A DNA stretch of 32,000 nucleotides from Candidatus Electronema aureum (GCA_004284765.1 NQJD01000005.1:30001-62000); one strand, 5' to 3'. Shown: positions 12,086 through 26,045, counted from the stretch's first letter. Notes: generated by a model from the sequence alone, not told the origin. Numbers and translations: made by a program.

Positions 12086-14170
12086 TCATCCCCGCCATGT
12101 CTTATACCGCTGCCAAGCTGCCTCGCCTACTGCTCTTAGGTTGATGCCAAAGCCGAAAAGCTCTGGCTCGGCTTTGAGATTCTTGCCTACCACATCAAGA
12201 AACGACTCCTTATCTTTTAAACCGTTAGGCACATTCTCCAGCAGCTTCAGCATCTTTTCCTCATCCACCGTATCGAGCAGCTCGCGTACCTTATATGCCT
12301 GCTTCGAGCCTTCTGGGATGTACTTTTCTATGCCTTGTTCAGCATAGTTGAGCAGCGTATTGTAATCAGCAGTGCGCTCTGGGTCATCAGGCATCGGCAC
12401 CCGCTCGCTCACCTTCAGACCAGCAAAGCCGGTGTTGATTTCTCGGAGCGTGAGCATGATCACAGTGAGGAAGGCTTTACGCTGCGTGCCTGTCACCGCG
12501 ATATGAATACGCCGGGTCTCGTTATCCGCCCGCACCACTGCGGTTGCTTCGAGCAGCGGATTTGCCAAGACAACGCCGCTCCGCCAGCGCAGCTTGTCCT
12601 TGATTTCGTGGTGCCGCTTGACGATGAAGCGCGGCATGACCGAAGGCGGTAGAAAGTCCTCATAATGGAGGACAAAGCGGAGCGCGTCCTCGCGCTTGAA
12701 ATCAAAGGACGGCTCTGACACATCGAGGAGCTGGGGCAGCAGAACCTCTTTGGCATTGAGTTCGTAGCACAGCTCGAACTTCTTCATCAGGTTGATGATA
12801 AAGATGTAGTCGTTTCGTTCATAACGATAGTCGTCACCCTCCTGCCATGCCAGTATCTCCTTGAGCGCATCTAACTTGAGCAGCCCTTTGCCTGCGGCAA
12901 TCAACTCGGCATTGATAATTTTATACACCGCGCCTGTCACCCACTTTGGATCAAGGATGTTGTTGCCGTCCAGCTCAAATTCATCAAAGTGAATGACAAT
13001 GCCGAGATCGTGCAGGAAAGCAGCCAGCACATTGCGGCTGATCTTACCGCTCACGCCTGCTTCCCGGCAGACTGCCTCGAACTGCTCATAGCTGATGCGC
13101 GGCTCGTTCATCTGCTCCAGCTGCGCCTTTGCTCTGAACCAACTCGTAGGCCATTCATTCTTGGTCAGAGGGACGTTGTTCAGCTCCTCGCACAGTGCTT
13201 GCTTGAAGGCTTCGATGCCGTTGCCAGTGTTGCAGGAAGTCTTCCAGAAGCCCTTGATGAACGGGTATTTCTCTTTCAGAAAAGGCCGGTTAAGATCAAA
13301 GCCGGGATTGGTGTCATACTTATTCAGCACAACTAAGACCGGTGAGCCACCGCCGAAGCTCTCAATATACCTCAGCCAGTATTCGGGCCGCTCGTCACGC
13401 CTGCCATCGAGGACAAGAACATACAGGCTGCGGCGCGAGAGGAAAAACTGGTGCGTGGCGTGCATGATCTCCTGTCCGCCAAAGTCCCAGAGCTTGCAGC
13501 GGATGTGCTGGCTGCCGGTATCGAGTTGCCAGTCCTTGATGCGGATGCCGTGAGTGGTGGCCTCGTGCGGATTGAACCGCTCATCGCGCAGGCAGCGGGT
13601 GAGCGAGGTCTTGCCCGACGCGCCTTCGCCTATAAGAATGATCTTGACCTCAGCTAATGTCTGCCCGCCTTCTTCGAGCGAGGTGAAGTATTCGCGAATG
13701 GCTTCGATGCCTTGGACAGCGAGTTCGTAGGGCGGGGAGATGAGGGGGTTGTTGCGCAGGTAAAGCTCTCTTAACCTGGGTAGCTGAACGATCTCCGGCG
13801 GGAGACTGGTAAGCTGGTTGTAGCGAAGGTTAAGCCAGGTGAGATTGGTCAGCTCAACAATCTCACCTGGCAGGGTGGAGAGATGGTTGTTGCGGAGGTC
13901 AAGCGTGGTGAGATTCTTCAGCTCAAAGAATTTTTGCGGCAGGATAGAAAGCTGGTTATCGTAAAGCAAAAGCACTTGCAGCTTGGTTAGCTGAAAGAGT
14001 TCTGGCGGCAAGGAGGTAAGTTGGTTGCCATTAAGCCAAAGCCCATATAGATTCGTTAGCTGAAAGAATTCTGGCGGCAGCTCGGTCAAGCCTTGATTGC
14101 TCAGTTCAAGCGTCGTTGCCCCTGTCTCCGCCGCCTCTTTAATCAGCTGCAACGCTTCTTCTTTGCCCAT
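12086..14170 (-). CDS. Roco-family protein: LRR - Roc GTPase - COR, plus ~110-aa unassigned C-terminal tail
   Basis: Five to six 23-aa LRRs (LTELPPEFFQLTNL..., LTSLPPELFQLTKL...). Roc G-motifs are GEGASGKT (P-loop), WDFGGQE (switch II) and VLNKYD (G4), followed by a COR-like region. The start MGKEEA at 14170 follows GGAGGAA. The longer track ORF reads through the upstream palindrome (RDTTCRVPT) and is rejected. Confidence 0.85.
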   Translation of the reverse strand: MGKEEALQLIKEAAETGATTLELSNQGLTELPPEFFQLTNLYGLWLNGNQLTSLPPELFQLTKLQVLLLYDNQLSILPQKFFELKNLTTLDLRNNHLSTLPGEIVELTNLTWLNLRYNQLTSLPPEIVQLPRLRELYLRNNPLISPPYELAVQGIEAIREYFTSLEEGGQTLAEVKIILIGEGASGKTSLTRCLRDERFNPHEATTHGIRIKDWQLDTGSQHIRCKLWDFGGQEIMHATHQFFLSRRSLYVLVLDGRRDERPEYWLRYIESFGGGSPVLVVLNKYDTNPGFDLNRPFLKEKYPFIKGFWKTSCNTGNGIEAFKQALCEELNNVPLTKNEWPTSWFRAKAQLEQMNEPRISYEQFEAVCREAGVSGKISRNVLAAFLHDLGIVIHFDEFELDGNNILDPKWVTGAVYKIINAELIAAGKGLLKLDALKEILAWQEGDDYRYERNDYIFIINLMKKFELCYELNAKEVLLPQLLDVSEPSFDFKREDALRFVLHYEDFLPPSVMPRFIVKRHHEIKDKLRWRSGVVLANPLLEATAVVRADNETRRIHIAVTGTQRKAFLTVIMLTLREINTGFAGLKVSERVPMPDDPERTADYNTLLNYAEQGIEKYIPEGSKQAYKVRELLDTVDEEKMLKLLENVPNGLKDKESFLDVVGKNLKAEPELFGFGINLRAVGEAAWQRYKTWRG

Positions 14171-14235
14171 TGTCTTGTTCCTCCGTGGGTGTTTTTGCCG
14201 CAACCATGTAGGGACACGACATGTCGTGTCCCTAC
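14171..14235 (-). promoter_or_regulatory. conserved leader plus perfect 28-bp palindrome upstream of the Roco gene (module copy A)
   Basis: GTAGGGACACGACATGTCGTGTCCCTAC (14208-14235) is a perfect palindrome. The sense-strand leader TTGCGGCAAAAACACCCACGGAGGA is near-identical to copy B at 15045-15107. Confidence 0.8.
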
Positions 14236-14265
14236 GGCCTGTCATCATGCCTCGAACGAATCTTG

Positions 14266-14398
14266 CTCCATAACCTATGCAACGCAAAGAGGATACCACT
14301 ATCCTCCTCAAGAGCATAACGTTATCCTCTTTGGGAGCATAGTACTATGCTCGGTAAGAGCATAGCGTTATGCTCCGCATGAGCATCGCGGCATTCTG
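14266..14398. repeat. tandem array A: six units at a 23-bp period, each an 18-bp (imperfect) palindrome of GAGCATAnnnnTATGCTC type
   Basis: Unit starts are 14266, 14289, 14312, 14335, 14358 and 14381. Units: ctccataacctatgcaac, gaggataccactatcctc, gagcataacgttatcctc, gagcatagtactatgctc (perfect palindrome), gagcatagcgttatgctc, gagcatcgcggcattctg. Spacers are 5 nt. Confidence 0.9.
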
Positions 14399-14461
14399 TT
14401 CAAAACACAGCAGCAAGGGAAAGTCAACGGCAAAGTGGTACGGGCAGGACGGCAAGGGTCG

Positions 14462-14701
14462 TCAGGCTCTCTTTGCCTGCGTGAAATCATAAACAGGGAT
14501 ATGCAGCATCTTGACCGGCTCGGTCTTCTTTTGGGCGATCTCCATCAGCATGTCCGCAACAGCCGGAGAATACACTTTCTCGCCGCAATGTGCGCAGACA
14601 TCAGCCGGAACATGCTCAACCAGCACATAGGCTTCCTCATCGTCATAGCTGAACGTCACTGTGCCGCTTCTGAGCGGCCCTCCGCAGAACACGCATCTCA
14701 T
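14462..14701 (-). CDS. YgiT-type zinc-finger protein (MqsA-N-terminal-like antitoxin without an HTH domain)
   Basis: MRCVFCGG...ADVCAHCGEKVYS has the CxxC...CxxC YgiT pattern. An AAGGAG RBS lies inside the upstream gene. The start overlaps the DUF4258 stop (ATGA). Confidence 0.8.
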   Translation of the reverse strand: MRCVFCGGPLRSGTVTFSYDDEEAYVLVEHVPADVCAHCGEKVYSPAVADMLMEIAQKKTEPVKMLHIPVYDFTQAKRA

Positions 14702-15005
14702 TGCCGGTGTCTCCTTGTCTTTCCTTCAATCCACTCTTCAGCATCTGGTTCGTATGCAGTGACAACGACCACCAGGGGCGGCAGTGTGATCAGCACGTGC
14801 AATGCTCTGCCCAGCCACGTCATCCCGCATATCAGACAGCTTGGGAGTATTTGTCGTGAGGATACTCTTCGATGATCTCGTCATGCAGCACAACAGCTTC
14901 CATCTCTTCTCGCCTGATCGAACGCTTGATCATCCTCTTCACGGCATGGTCAGAGAACTTGTAGTTTCCCGCCCTGATCTGCTCACGTATTGCATGGATG
15001 TCCAT
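14698..15005 (-). pseudogene. DUF4258-family toxin gene interrupted by a 1-nt frameshift
   Basis: Not in the ORF track. Frame 1 reads MDIHAIREQIRAGNYKFSDHAVKRMIKRSIRREEMEAVVLHDEIIEEYPHDKYSQAV*. The next frame continues SCLICGMTWLGRALHVLITLPPLVVVVTAYEPDAEEWIEGKTRRHRQ*. The total of 308 nt is not a multiple of 3. Adding one C to the CCC run (14843-14845) restores DKYSPSCLI and a 102-aa DUF4258-like protein. Confidence 0.75.
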
Positions 15006-15017
15006 ATTGTCTAATCT

Positions 15018-15044
15018 TCATCGCAAGGATTCTTCTTTGTCCAT
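15018..15044 (-). other. 8-codon mini-ORF (MDKEESLR*) occupying the start-codon position of module copy B
   Basis: It follows the conserved GGAGGAG RBS. Its first 15 nt (ATGGACAAAGAAGAA) match the Roco start ATGGGCAAAGAAGAA at 14 of 15 positions. It stops 12 nt before the DUF4258 ATG, which has no obvious RBS of its own. Whether it is translated is unknown. Confidence 0.3.
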
Positions 15045-15107
15045 AGCCTGCTCCTCCGTGGGTGTTTTTACCGCAAACTGTAGGGGCGAAAAATTTTTCG
15101 CCCCTAC
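15045..15107 (-). promoter_or_regulatory. conserved leader plus perfect 28-bp palindrome upstream of the toxin-antitoxin pair (module copy B)
   Basis: GTAGGGGCGAAAAATTTTTCGCCCCTAC (15080-15107) is a perfect palindrome. The leader TTGCGGTAAAAACACCCACGGAGGA matches copy A. Confidence 0.8.
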
Positions 15108-15162
15108 AATGGTGCCATCATAGCTGCGTCCGTCCTCTTTTCATCCGCCTTGGCAAACTAAG

Positions 15163-15337
15163 AACCATAGCCTATGCACGGTGCAAACCATAGGCTATGC
15201 TCCCTGCGAGCATAAGCTATGCAGCGCAAGAGCATAGGTTAAGCTCGATGGGAGCATAACGTTATCCTCTGTACGAGCATAAGCTATCGAGGCAGGCTCG
15301 ATAAGCTGTCCGAACGCTGCTGCATAGCCTATCGAGA
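15163..15337. repeat. tandem array B: eight units at a 22-23-bp period, same palindromic family as array A
   Basis: Unit starts are 15163, 15186, 15208, 15230, 15252, 15275, 15297 and 15320. Units include aaccatagcctatgcacg, aaccataggctatgctcc, gagcataagctatgcagc, gagcataggttaagctcg, gagcataacgttatcctc (identical to the third unit of array A, at 14312), gagcataagctatcgagg and ctgcatagcctatcgaga. Confidence 0.85.
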
Positions 15338-15456
15338 CAGCCGGGCAGCCTGTGGCGAAAGAGGGAGCTGGAGGGAGGAGCGCGGCTCAGGCAGCCGCTG
15401 GCGGGAGAGGCTGCCTGCTCTGGCCGCCCCTCCGCATCAGGCAGGAGGCAACGGGG

Positions 15457-16878
15457 CTACCACGTCACCATGTAGCAGGAGAGCGTGCGGCCTTCTTCAA
15501 GGTCTTTGCCCTCCATGTAACGCTGCATGGACTCCGCCGCCACCTTGCCTTGATAGACGGCCTTGGCTGCGGTCTGCGGGCCAAGCACGTCATCACCACC
15601 GGCAAAGATCCACGGCACCGAAGTCTGGAGGGTGCGGGGATTGACTGTGTAGGTGCCCCACGATTCTAACTTGAGATCAGTACCTCGGTCGGCCTCGTGC
15701 TGCACGTTCTGGCTGATGGCAGGAATGACCGCATCCGCCTCAATGATGAAGTTCGAGCCTGCCTGCTCCACTGGGCGACGGCGGCCTGAAGCATCAGGCT
15801 CACCTAACCCCATGCGCACGCACTCTAACCCGGTGAGCTTGCCGCTGGCATCAGCATGAATCTTGACCGGAGCAGCCAAGAACTCAATCCGCACGCCTTC
15901 CTCCTCCAAGTGCCGCACCTCTTCCTTCGAGGCAGGCATCTCTTCTTTCGTGCGGCGGTAGAGGATGAAGACTTGATCCGAGCCAGTGCGCAAGGCGGTA
16001 CGGGCTACATCAATAGCCACATTACCGCCACCCACCACCACGACCTTTCTGCCGATCTGCATCTCCTCACCGGTAAGCACCCGCCGAAGATAGTCCACGC
16101 CATGCAACACGCCCTTGGTATTCTGCTCGCCCTCAATGCCGAGCTTCTTGCCCTCATGCGCGCCAACGCCGATGAAGACCGCTTCGTAGCCCTCTTCGTG
16201 CAGCTCGTGCAGGGTCTTGTCCTTGCCAATGGTTATGCCGAGCTTGATCTCCACGCCACAGCTCTTGAGTGAAGCCAGCTCTGCTCCGATGATGTCGCGA
16301 GGCAAGCGGTAATGAGGAATGCCCACAGAGAGCATCCCACCAAAGACTGGCAGTGCCTCATAGATCGTGCATTTATAACCCTGATGCGCGAGCAGATACG
16401 CGGCGGTGATGCCTGCCGGGCCAGAACCGACAATGGCAGCCTTGCGTCCGTTAGGCAGGGCGCAGGCATGGGACATGGCTTTGCGCTTGGCAATCATCCA
16501 GTCGGTTAGGTAGCGTTCCAGCATCCCGATGGCCACTGGCTCGCCGCTCTTGCCGCGCACACAGCTGCCCTCGCACTGGAACTCGTGCGGGCAGACGCGG
16601 GAGCAGACCGAAGGCATGGTGCTGGTCTCACGCACCTTCCAGTAGGCTTCCTCGAATTGCTTCTCCCGCAGCAAACCAATGAAGCCGGGGATGTCATTGC
16701 GGATCGGACAGCCCTGCACACAGGCAGGCTTCTTGCATTGCAGGCAGCGGTTAGCCTCCAGCAAAGCCGTTGCCTCGTCGTAACCTGCGGTCACTTCAGC
16801 AAAGCTCCTGATCCGCTCCGCAGGCGCAAGCTCTTTGGGATGCTGGCGGGGAATGGCCATCCGTTCTTTGGTGTTCAT
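15457..16878 (-). CDS. glutamate synthase small-subunit-like NAD(P)H-dependent FAD/Fe-S oxidoreductase (GltD/SudA family)
   Basis: The N-terminus carries Cys clusters (CLQCKKPACVQGCP, CSRVCPHEFQCEGSC). Two Rossmann motifs are present (IVGSGPAGITAA, VVVVGGGNVAID). The start at ATG 16878 lies 6 nt after AGGAG. Confidence 0.8.
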   Translation of the reverse strand: MNTKERMAIPRQHPKELAPAERIRSFAEVTAGYDEATALLEANRCLQCKKPACVQGCPIRNDIPGFIGLLREKQFEEAYWKVRETSTMPSVCSRVCPHEFQCEGSCVRGKSGEPVAIGMLERYLTDWMIAKRKAMSHACALPNGRKAAIVGSGPAGITAAYLLAHQGYKCTIYEALPVFGGMLSVGIPHYRLPRDIIGAELASLKSCGVEIKLGITIGKDKTLHELHEEGYEAVFIGVGAHEGKKLGIEGEQNTKGVLHGVDYLRRVLTGEEMQIGRKVVVVGGGNVAIDVARTALRTGSDQVFILYRRTKEEMPASKEEVRHLEEEGVRIEFLAAPVKIHADASGKLTGLECVRMGLGEPDASGRRRPVEQAGSNFIIEADAVIPAISQNVQHEADRGTDLKLESWGTYTVNPRTLQTSVPWIFAGGDDVLGPQTAAKAVYQGKVAAESMQRYMEGKDLEEGRTLSCYMVTW

Positions 16879-16915
16879 GGGCATCTCCTGTAACAAGTTG
16901 GTTCAAAAAGAGTGA

Positions 16916-24515: not shown

Positions 24516-26045
24516 TTATAAAGTGGTCAACCCTTGAGGGGTGAAATTCAAAACAAACTCTAATTTTTGTTCAGGAATCAGAGAGGGAAAATTCGGCAGC
24601 GGTGCCGCGCTGCGCAGTGCTTTGAGAACCGACTGATCAAACAGGGCATCACCGGATTTCTGCTCGATTTTCATATCCTCAATCGCACCGTTTCTGCTTA
24701 CGGTTAATGCGACTACGGTTTTCAGCTTTCGGCTGGGAACGACCATTTCTGGCACTTTCCAGTGGTTACTGATTTTTTCATTCAACAAACCAGCATAGCG
24801 ACTCAAAGCAACAGGACTACCTGTGCCGCTCCCGCCGCCAGACCCCAGTCCGCTGCCCAATAATCTCCCACCGCCCCCGGTTCCGCCAGTCCCAGCCGCT
24901 ACAGCGGAACTCACCGCAAGATTTTCTCGCAAGGCTTGAACTAACTGCTTTCTGGCGGTAATGGCCTCGCGCTGCGCCGCTGCCGCCTCTTGCTCAATGC
25001 GCTGGGCTGCGGCTAAGGCTTTCCGCCGCTCCTGCGCTGCTATTTTCTTCCGAGCCTCAATTGCGGCGGCTTTTTTTTCTGCCTCTATCTGTGCAACCTT
25101 GGCTACTTCTTGTTTTTTTGCCTCAGCAGCAATTTTGGCTCGCTCTTTCTTTGCTTCCGCGATGTTCGCTTCTTTCTCCCGTGCAGCCTGCTCTTCAGCA
25201 ACCCGTTTTTTTGCTTCGACGGCAGCTTTTTTCTCTGCTTCCAGCTTGGTTGCCTCCTCTTGCTTTTTTACTTCAGCAATACGGGCCAGCTCTGCCTGTT
25301 TTTTTGTTTCAGCGATTTTTGCCTGCTCTCTCGCCTTTTCCTCGACAGCGGCCTTGGCTTCTGCCTTCTGCTTTACCGGATTGAGGGAAACCACATTTTT
25401 TTTTGCCTGCGCTATAGGTGTCGGTGTCGGGGCAATTTCGGGTTTCGGCACAGAAATTTCAGCAGCTTTTGGCTCCGGGGCTTTCTCAACTATTTTTTTA
25501 ACCGTCGGCTCTGGCTTAAGTTCAACCGGCGGTGCCGCTGCTTTGACAACTGTTTTTTCAGCAACAACAGGCTCTGGCTTAACTTCCTCGACTGCTTCTT
25601 TTGCTACCGACTGCTTAACAGCTATTTCCGACGTTGCTTCAATTTCTTTAGTCACCGGCTTTTCTGGCACAACCTCTTTTTTCGCAATTTCTTTCACAGC
25701 TGGCTCGACAGCCTTCACCGCAGTTTTGCGCTGCTTACTCGCCTTAATTTCTACAGGCGGAGGCAATTCTTCAATCTTGGCCGCAGGAGCAGCAGCCATA
25801 GGTGCTGTTGCCAACGGTGCAGTAGCTGGAGCCGGACCGAATTCATCCAAGCTGACAAAATTCACTGTGACCGAATTATCTAATCTGAAGCCGGGACTGC
25901 TGCCAGCCATGTTTTGCAGGACGATCGCGCTGGCGAAAAGGGCAAGGTGCATCGCTACAGCCAAGTTCAGCGGCCACTGCCAGCCCGGACCATTCTCTCG
26001 CTGCTCTAAAAATGCCTGCCATTCGTCATAGTTCATCCCGCTCAT
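24516..26045 (-). CDS. tolA: TolA-like / TonB-family energy-transducer protein
   Basis: An N-terminal TM helix is followed by a very long A/E/K/P-rich linker and then a Gly-rich stretch. The C-terminal TonB_C-like domain reads VALTVSRNGAIEDMKIEQKSGDALFDQSVLKALRSAAPLPNFP. The start overlaps the tolR stop. Confidence 0.75.
   Translation of the reverse strand: MSGMNYDEWQAFLEQRENGPGWQWPLNLAVAMHLALFASAIVLQNMAGSSPGFRLDNSVTVNFVSLDEFGPAPATAPLATAPMAAAPAAKIEELPPPVEIKASKQRKTAVKAVEPAVKEIAKKEVVPEKPVTKEIEATSEIAVKQSVAKEAVEEVKPEPVVAEKTVVKAAAPPVELKPEPTVKKIVEKAPEPKAAEISVPKPEIAPTPTPIAQAKKNVVSLNPVKQKAEAKAAVEEKAREQAKIAETKKQAELARIAEVKKQEEATKLEAEKKAAVEAKKRVAEEQAAREKEANIAEAKKERAKIAAEAKKQEVAKVAQIEAEKKAAAIEARKKIAAQERRKALAAAQRIEQEAAAAQREAITARKQLVQALRENLAVSSAVAAGTGGTGGGGRLLGSGLGSGGGSGTGSPVALSRYAGLLNEKISNHWKVPEMVVPSRKLKTVVALTVSRNGAIEDMKIEQKSGDALFDQSVLKALRSAAPLPNFPSLIPEQKLEFVLNFTPQGLTTL

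Follow-up and report, generated by a model that had tools for sequence, protein, structure and literature searches.

The genome of Candidatus Electronema aureum contains, within a stretch of 32,000 nucleotides (GCA_004284765.1, NQJD01000005.1:30001-62000; hereafter the window), two copies of a segment in which a 28-bp palindrome is followed by a short leader, a Shine-Dalgarno (SD) sequence and the first codons of an open reading frame (ORF). Copy A opens a gene for a Roco GTPase with leucine-rich-repeat, Roc and COR domains (LRR-Roc-COR) and copy B stands before a DUF4258 toxin-antitoxin (TA) cassette, which poses the question of how two unrelated genes came to share a 5′ end. A first-pass annotation proposed a portable expression module onto which different cargo genes had been recombined. 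The evidence points to a different origin: the duplicated unit probably represents two old paralogous versions of the intergenic region between a gltD-like gene and a Roco gene, each with the Roco start, of which B is now a stump beside the TA genes and in both of which the palindromes are repeats resembling repetitive extragenic palindromic (REP) sequences, the whole forming a rearrangement scar. The parts of the two copies are as follows.

14171-14207, minus strand: leader A, 37 nt, with SD GGAGGA at 14179-14184 and the Roco ATG at 14170; recognized by the 22-nt core match and the leader alignment
14208-14235, minus strand: palindrome A, GTAGGGACACGACATGTCGTGTCCCTAC, a perfect 28-bp palindrome, likely a GTAG-tagged REP-like element of the 'ACA' type (pattern match and fold)
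14244-14249, minus strand: putative -10-like box of copy A, CATGAT, its position conserved with copy B and relatives
14269-14400, minus strand: array A, about 5 units of 23-bp period, GAGCATA-N4-TATGCTC (Tandem Repeats Finder, 14275-14386, period 23, 4.8 copies)
15018-15044, minus strand: relic Roco start, an ATG at 15044 plus seven codons and a TGA at 15018-15020, encoding MDKEESLR
15045-15079, minus strand: leader B, 35 nt, with SD GGAGGA at 15052-15057; 86% identical to leader A and alignable with 10 other Roco leaders
15080-15107, minus strand: palindrome B, GTAGGGGCGAAAAATTTTTCGCCCCTAC, a perfect 28-bp palindrome, likely a GTAG-tagged REP-like element of the 'GCG' type (pattern match and fold)
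15117-15122, minus strand: putative -10-like box of copy B, TATGAT, within a [T/C]ATGATGG motif 10 nt upstream of the palindrome
15166-15340, minus strand: array B, about 7 units of 22-23-bp period, palindromes of about 18 bp, CATAGC.TATG / GAGCATA-N4-TATGCTC (Tandem Repeats Finder, 15189-15287, period 22, 4.5 copies)

The similarity from hairpin to first codons that had been annotated is present, but it does not begin at the hairpin; it runs 150-250 bp further upstream across the arrays and the [T/C]ATGATG box, so that each copy extends over about 330-440 bp and comprises a palindrome array of 22/23-bp period, a -10-like box, the 28-bp GTAGGG...CCCTAC palindrome, the leader, the GGAGGA SD and about the first eight codons. 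The copies lie in direct orientation 873 bp apart, and their likeness differs by segment, being 77% in the arrays, 64% (18/28) in the palindrome, 86% in the leader (26 of 28 positions identical in its core) and 79% over codons 1-8. The 22-nt leader core is found twice in the window without mismatch and not once in 100 shuffles, and GTAGGG-N16-CCCTAC is found twice in the 32 kb against a shuffle mean of 0.03, with no shuffle containing two; the duplication is therefore not due to chance. Nor is it an artefact of the long-read based reference assembly, since an independent short-read assembly (L023, SRR14559661; other loci are likewise cited by L number) is 100% identical to it across window positions 13020-16232, some 3.2 kb. 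The duplication of hairpin, leader, ribosome binding site and first codons is thus real, with both copies in the places first annotated. The window also forms part of OW818638.1, a 2.94-Mb chromosome from a closed cable-bacterium genome (assembly GCA_942492785.1).

What copy B is depends on whose leader and codons are shared. All sites of the form SD-ATG-xxC-AAAGAAGA in the fetched DNA, together with four from a metagenome scan, amount to 13 5′ ends from about 10 genomes or metagenome contigs, and every one of them has the leader TTGCGG.AAAACACCCACGGAGGAAC... and the N-terminus M-G/S/N/D-K-E-E/D-A/S-L-R/Q-x-I-K-E-A-A-E-T-G-A-T. Ten head Roco-type ORFs, one heads a truncated LRR ORF and two are stumps before other genes; of the 11 sites outside the window, nine lead into LRR or Roco ORFs, L009 supplies the second stump, and the ORF in L020 ends at 105 aa. 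Pfam confirms the leucine-rich-repeat/Roco identity of the downstream ORFs for L013, L016 and L018. Because this leader and N-terminus head Roco genes at other related sites, the shared first codons are the native start of the Roco family, and the notion of a generic module common to unrelated genes falls away, the leader, SD and first codons belonging in 13 examples to LRR-Roc-COR paralogues. The eight residues encoded by the relic fit the conserved N-terminus M[GSN]KE[ED]AL[RQ] of 11 Roco 5′ ends. Judged by its sequence, MDKEESLR with its stop is a decayed Roco N-terminus, and copy B is what remains of the 5′ end of an LRR-Roc-COR gene.

Homology of the stump past codon 8 is not significant, with a weak signal against L009 only (80 of 2000 shuffles, uncorrected). 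The breakpoint lies where it had been predicted, just inside the coding region, with significant homology reaching to about codon 8. The proposal that one 5′ region stands before different cargo is also correct in part: at L009 5268-5460 an array, the palindrome GTAGGGGCGAAAAATTTTTCGCCCCTGC, the leader and 39 Roco-type codons are followed by an unrelated PPDK_N/PEP-utilizer (phosphoenolpyruvate-utilizing) gene, whose ATG (5450) overlaps the end of the stump ORF, but the unit that recurs is again a Roco 5′ end. In both stumps the relic ORF ends no more than about 15 nt from the next start codon.

The leader and first 19 or so codons of the Roco paralogues are far more alike in DNA across species than the remainder of the gene (in an alignment that includes window positions 14125-14207), and leaders A and B are closer to each other than leader B is to its positional orthologue in L006. 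This excess of likeness suggests gene conversion or a constraint at the nucleotide level. The exact leader core has no match in a one-genome-per-species collection, which does not include the source genome, and a literature search on Roco proteins in cable bacteria found nothing.

The genes around the copies give both the age of the duplication and the nature of the inserted DNA.

12086-14170, minus strand: LRR-Roc-COR (Roco) GTPase gene, intact, 694 aa (Pfam LRR_8, Roc, COR-A, COR-B)
14462-14701, minus strand: antitoxin gene, intact, a 79-aa YgiT-type zinc ribbon (MqsA-type N-terminal domain, no helix-turn-helix) with its own AAGGAGA SD
14698-15005, minus strand: DUF4258 toxin gene, frameshifted; the called ORF is 14832-15005, 57 aa, and the remainder is out of frame
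15457-16896, minus strand: gltD-like NADPH-dependent oxidoreductase gene (Pfam Fer4_20 and Pyr_redox_2), the conserved upstream neighbour that anchors comparisons of synteny

The Roco gene has its domains in Roco order, with E-values of 3.5e-33 (LRR_8), 4.2e-28 (Roc), 1.1e-32 (COR-A) and 2.2e-29 (COR-B), and its orthologues are 83-88% (L006) and 82% (L018) identical in DNA. In L006 the order is gltD, a B-type array, two palindromes, leader and Roco, without TA genes; in L018 it is gltD, an A-type array, a REP doublet, leader and Roco, with neither TA genes nor a B copy. The A-type intergenic region of the window is 91.3% identical to that of L018, where gltD is 92.3% identical, and the B-type region is 88.5% identical to that of L006, where gltD is 90.1% identical; copies A and B are 75.8% identical to each other. 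Because the divergence of each region matches that of gltD, the A and B types both predate the split of the lineages of the window, L018 and L006. The simplest history would be an old duplication of the gltD-Roco intergenic region and gene start, both copies of which the window retains, L018 and L006 each having lost one through recombination between repeats. That such duplications do occur in the Roco family is seen from L016 (500-4179), in which a tandem duplication of a transketolase-like 3′ end, array, palindrome, leader and Roco gene has been caught intact, its two copies carrying different palindrome subtypes, as in the window.

The TA genes no longer form an intact pair. A 1-nt deletion in the C-run at 14843-14845, visible as a gap in a three-way DNA alignment, splits the DUF4258 gene, and the called ORF matches the Pfam DUF4258 profile over positions 1-38 of 71 only; when the frame is corrected, the whole toxin (100% of its length) can be aligned with homologues of 99-103 aa, to which it is up to 78% identical. 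The truncated product is identical in three assemblies, one of them from the independent short-read run (L023), and because the same product is called there the frameshift is real. The antitoxin scores 42.3 bits against TIGR03831, above the cut-off, and 28.5 bits against Pfam MqsA_antitoxin, below the cut-off of 30. A type II TA operon has an intact toxin beside an intact antitoxin, and here the antitoxin is intact and the toxin interrupted: the DUF4258 gene is a pseudogene and the antitoxin an orphan beside it. PADLOC defence models match none of the Roco, toxin and antitoxin products.

Homology to related cassettes (76% identity, L003/L017 and L013) begins no more than about 5 nt from the toxin ATG and stops at the antitoxin stop, and in L003, L013 and L148 the DNA before the DUF4258/YgiT cassettes is unrelated as far as the ATG, with neither the leader nor the mini-ORF. 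In the window the toxin ATG (15005) lies 12 nt past the relic TGA and has no obvious SD. Copy B thus looks like a case of promoter and 5′-untranslated-region (5′-UTR) capture at a rearrangement junction, the stump now abutting a TA ORF pair that lacks its own 5′ region. Close DUF4258/YgiT homologues are common in anaerobe metagenomes, and the Desulfobulbaceae contig L003, on which there is also an IS200 transposase, likewise holds a TA-array-Roco arrangement.

These observations bear directly on the portable module as first conceived, in which palindrome, leader, SD and first codons form a dedicated transferable unit and the mini-ORF is kept to feed ribosomes to cargo lacking an SD. There are indeed two independent cases before genes other than Roco (the window TA genes and the PPDK_N gene of L009), both with the relic ORF ending close to the next start; the toxin ATG is without an obvious SD, and the leader core is nearly invariant between A and B though the arrays are only 77% identical. 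We nevertheless consider this explanation quite improbable, as 9 of the 11 other occurrences open Roco-type ORFs and the shared codons encode the family's conserved LRR-cap N-terminus, related TA cassettes do without the unit and the mini-ORF is not conserved upstream of homologous cargo (L003, L013, L148), no recombinase or recombination site accompanies it, the relics are unequal in length (8 versus 39 codons), and the cargo toxin is here a pseudogene.

The palindromes require a separate account. Both fold stably, as the hairpin interpretation had anticipated, with a predicted energy of -20.4 kcal/mol for each 28-mer (z = -5.6 and -6.9). In 162 kb of cable-bacterial DNA, a biased sample, there are 12 members of the 28-mer type. 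Several are away from Roco genes: L006 7636 follows a gene end, L004 3332 and 7533 and L007 6041 are intergenic, and that of L008 is at a contig end. The head, GTAG in 10 of the 12 and GTAA in two, is base-paired to a tail of CTAC/CTGC; nearby in L018, L148 and L084 the same head also occurs in its classical form, with the tag unpaired (GTAG-GGGCRG.C-loop). Across the 12 members 98.2% of cells are paired, with double-sided changes at 8 of 14 pairs, 30 compensated cells against 10.9 in shuffles, and U-G at pair 2-27 in four members. The two innermost pairs are complementary as well, although a hairpin could not contain them; the symmetry therefore belongs to the DNA and not to the transcript only, and it points to a process acting on DNA besides any RNA structure.

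The centre of palindrome B recurs unchanged in L009, nearly so in L016 and L011, and in eight copies in viral contigs; a centre related to that of palindrome A is found at L008 1-24. ACA-type and GCG-type elements form a doublet in L006, where they alternate as they do in the viral cluster of L084, and REP doublets occur in L018 and L148. At orthologous sites the flanks are 88-91% identical while the palindromic elements differ wholesale: the B slot has the GCGAAAAATTTTTCGC centre in the window and the ACAATTCATGAATTGT centre plus a second palindrome in L006, and the A slot has the 28-bp palindrome in the window and a 74-nt doublet of classical GTAG-stem-loop repeats in L018. The slot of L020 contains another GTAG...CTAC element, and that of L003, L010 and L013 is empty. 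Because orthologous slots hold different elements or none, whole palindromes are exchanged for one another at one set position, which lies between the [T/C]ATGATGG box and the leader. The statement in the first-pass annotation that structure rather than sequence is conserved thus holds in so far as the symmetry is maintained while the sequence changes; it does not hold as slow compensatory evolution of one hairpin, whole members being different at orthologous sites. The two palindromes are likely two subtypes (GTAGGGACA..., GTAGGGGCG...) of a dispersed GTAG-tagged REP-like family and not diverged copies of one hairpin. A search of the literature for the palindrome sequence among bacteria found nothing.

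The family is also abundant in viral DNA. The patterns GTAGGGGCG-N10-CGCCCCTAC and GTAGGGACA-N10-TGTCCCTAC occur 144 times in 124 IMG/VR stretches (L024-L147), the first in 111 stretches and the ACA variant in 13. Although the search left the 10-nt centre unconstrained, it is a perfect palindrome in 84 of the 144 and has one mismatched pair in a further 44, with dozens of different centres. The contigs range in GC content from 49 to 73%, and by crude ORF calls the palindromes lie mostly between genes of the same direction, the median distances being 15 nt from the end of the upstream gene and 61 nt to the following start. At L084 2104-2250 there is a cluster in which two subtypes alternate with constant linkers, in the manner of bacterial interspersed mosaic elements (BIMEs), and L060 has four copies (5521, 6503, 8677, 12417) in a terminase-encoding phage contig, the terminase having less than 30% identity to any cultured phage. 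A direct repeat of the right arm only follows the palindrome in L048, L060 and L073. Beside one palindrome, at about 6531-6565 of L060, is a solitary sequence, GTCGCCCCCCCCACGCGGGGGCGCGGATTGAAAC, which we take to resemble a type I-C-style clustered regularly interspaced short palindromic repeat (CRISPR).

The arrays have a narrower distribution. A query of two adjacent array units matched 11 loci, all in Desulfobulbaceae or Candidatus Electronema genomes, which marks the source of the window as a cable bacterium. The array pattern has no match in the viral contigs. Arrays of palindromes of about 18 bp with a strict 22-23-bp period are common in the intergenic DNA of both groups (for example at L013 5060-5160 and 11160-11289, at L004 3380-3530, and in L002, L005, L007, L008 and L012), and the unit sequence is particular to each array (GAGCATA..TATGCTC, GACCTAAGC.., AATCCTAAGC.., GTGACAGC..GCGTCAC, GAGCACAC..). 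For the 22/23-bp arrays we obtained no Rfam match and found no paper.

An alternative explanation is that the 28-bp palindromes, and perhaps the 23-bp arrays, are duplex sites for symmetric regulators that control the Roco and TA genes together, with the GTAGGG/CCCTAC half-sites as the contacts. It would account for a dyad symmetry that includes the central base pairs, for invariant outer half-sites at fixed spacing, for a site between the -10-like box and the leader, and for arrays phased at about two helical turns and abutting the putative -35. A regulator reading the outer half-sites, however, would not explain why the variable centre remains palindromic, as it does in so many of the viral copies; the same palindromes are found after gene ends and in phage contigs of widely differing GC content, the slot is occupied by REP doublets of another structure in L018 and L020 and by nothing in other loci, and array units are unrelated in sequence between loci, so that we give operators no better prospects than the transferable module. 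It is scarcely credible that the second copy exists in this genome only, through a recent tandem duplication at the site or an assembly artefact, as the short distance between the copies, their direct orientation and the long-read reference might suggest, given that the short-read assembly is identical and that A and B are only 76% identical, each with a closer orthologue in another lineage.

Returning to the reading of the locus as paralogous Roco starts with REP-like repeats, it can be extended to a broader proposal, which we put forward as doubtful. These 'double-tagged' palindromes (GTAGGGRCR-N10-YGYCCCTAC) would be an undescribed REP-like class, the centres of which are hypervariable yet kept symmetric by a process acting at the DNA level, such as template switching or hairpin copying. 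They would have spread through phages and cable bacteria and be exchanged in a constant position at the very start of Roco-family mRNAs, where with the promoter-proximal 23-bp arrays they might form a recombination-prone cassette repeatedly captured by inserted genes (the TA genes here, PPDK_N in L009).

How such a 5′ end would be expressed can be outlined. The [T/C]ATGATGG box is at the same position in copy A of the window, L006, L016 (twice), L018 and L020, 6-11 nt upstream of the palindromic element, and a consensus promoter scan reports ATGAAA-16-TATGAT at copy B. A consensus structure for 11 leaders has an energy of only -1.45 kcal/mol, with no covariation, and an Rfam search of 13500-16000 returned a single chance microRNA match (E = 0.5). 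Given a conserved box and a leader without conserved structure, the [T/C]ATGAT box may act as the -10 element, with transcription starting a few nucleotides before the palindrome, and the 5′ end of the mRNA would then fold into a 12-bp stem-loop, ahead of an unstructured leader and a strong SD. At copy B the transcript would cover the TA remnant; ribosomes that initiated at the relic AUG would read its eight codons and terminate 12 nt short of the SD-less toxin AUG, a distance compatible with reinitiation, some of which is plausible. Termination-reinitiation has little left to serve, because the toxin reading frame is broken and the antitoxin gene brings an SD of its own.

Copy A, and not copy B, has an out-of-frame ATG (14205-14207) right after the palindrome (CCCTAC-ATGGTTGCGG), which opens a short ORF overlapping the Roco start. 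Two other promoter types were considered for the region and rejected: sigma-54, for TGGCA-N-GTAG, by eye, as the GG/GC spacing is wrong, and a Bacteroidetes-type TAnnTTTG promoter within the leader, as the host is a member of the Desulfobulbaceae and not of the Chlorobi.

Several points count against the view of the locus as a scar of Roco paralogues and REP-like repeats. The GTAG head of these palindromes pairs with a CTAC tail, leaving no unpaired tag such as GTAG-tagged REPs have, and the window copies occupy a fixed slot before start codons, at 36-38 nt, in place of a position just after stops, the upstream stop being more than 220 nt away. A phmmer search with YafM and IS608 TnpA as queries recovered no REP-associated tyrosine transposase (RAYT) among all ORFs of the 1.2 Mb of fetched DNA; the sole match is an ordinary IS200-type TnpA (L003 87-527; Pfam Y1_Tnp, E = 3e-43) that is not flanked by GTAGGG palindromes. 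Promoter-like sites in the region are not above shuffle expectation, and the -10-like box has only a weak -35 partner. For the arrival of the TA genes between the copies there are three candidates, namely tandem duplication followed by replacement of the Roco body, Campbell-type integration, and homology-facilitated illegitimate recombination; the likeness between the spacer after the antitoxin and that after gltD is marginal (49 to 364 of 1000 shuffles), and there is a marginal hint that copy A starts with sequence that follows the gltD stop. Finally, two stumps before unrelated genes (window, L009) leave some room for a recurrent, non-accidental process.

For annotation the consequences are simple: the 8-codon ORF should be read as a gene remnant and not as a designed upstream ORF, and the DUF4258 gene as a pseudogene. 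More broadly, the intergenic DNA of cable bacteria has at least two abundant, undescribed small-repeat systems, the GTAG...CTAC perfect palindromes and the palindrome arrays of 22/23-bp period, both of which sit at rearrangement junctions and beside promoters of the fast-turning-over Roco family. If the palindromes are indeed 5′-terminal mRNA stem-loops exchanged as units, they would offer a natural system for learning how REP-type repeats tune expression, and their abundance in phage contigs raises the question of what mobilizes them.

The neighbours elsewhere in the window are gltD, thioredoxin, trpEG and FadL genes, with no integrase. The stretch at 25000-26000 has an AT skew of -0.355, and three copies of a CTTCTTGTTTTTTTGCCTCAGC-like 22-mer lie within a 509-aa ORF (24516-26045, minus strand); the skew probably reflects a repetitive protein.

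Each part of the locus has its counterpart among known systems. The TA genes resemble DUF4258/YgiT-type (MqsA-like) type II pairs in that both ORFs are small, overlap by ATGA once the frame is corrected, and match DUF4258 and TIGR03831 respectively; they differ in the frameshifted toxin, in an antitoxin that is a zinc ribbon only, with no helix-turn-helix, and in a cassette without its own promoter region. Integron cassettes with their attC sites are similar in that promoterless cargo, for instance TA genes, adjoins a palindrome of imperfect conservation whose outer ends are fixed and whose centre varies, but the window has neither integrase nor cassette array and its palindrome lies inside a gene's own 5′ region; attC itself is excluded by palindrome ends of GTAGGG/CCCTAC in place of RYYYAAC/GTTRRRY core sites. 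Another comparison is with 5′-terminal stem-loops that stabilize mRNA, of which the E. coli ompA 5′ UTR is the type case. Common to both would be a strong predicted stem-loop a few nucleotides from the putative transcript start, followed by an unstructured leader and a strong SD; the stem-loop in the window belongs to a dispersed repeat family and is not gene-specific.

The closest parallel for the palindromes is with GTAG-tagged REPs, REPINs (REP doublets forming hairpins) and BIMEs. The hallmarks of GTAG REPs are units of 20-40 bp, a GTAG tag, sub-families with complementary stem changes, G-T pairs, dimers or clusters, and a position after ORFs (PMC3733652). Here too there are GC-rich palindromic units of 20-40 bp that start with GTAG and form a stable stem-loop, sub-families distinguished by complementary stem changes with occasional G-T pairs, and singletons, doublets and tandem clusters of two partner types that turn over rapidly between related genomes; in the viral sample the elements lie mostly between genes and near gene ends by crude ORF calls. 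Beyond the missing free tag and the fixed slot, the differences are that the window unit is a perfect 28-bp palindrome with a self-complementary centre, that stems are 12-14 bp compared with 6-9 bp in most families, and that many copies are in bona fide phage contigs.

The duplication as a whole compares best with gene 5′ remnants and promoter capture after duplication or insertion, in that a direct repeat of an intergenic region and first codons flanks inserted DNA, with a short frameshifted remnant ORF and downstream genes that lack their own upstream region. It differs in that the duplication is old, the A and B types each being kept singly in other lineages, and in that the same gene family offers a second stump (L009) and a full tandem duplication (L016). 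The finding is a case of known kinds, namely REP-like repeats and promoter capture at a gene remnant; more curious are the repeat families themselves, with their symmetric hypervariable centres, their distribution in phages and the accompanying 23-bp arrays.

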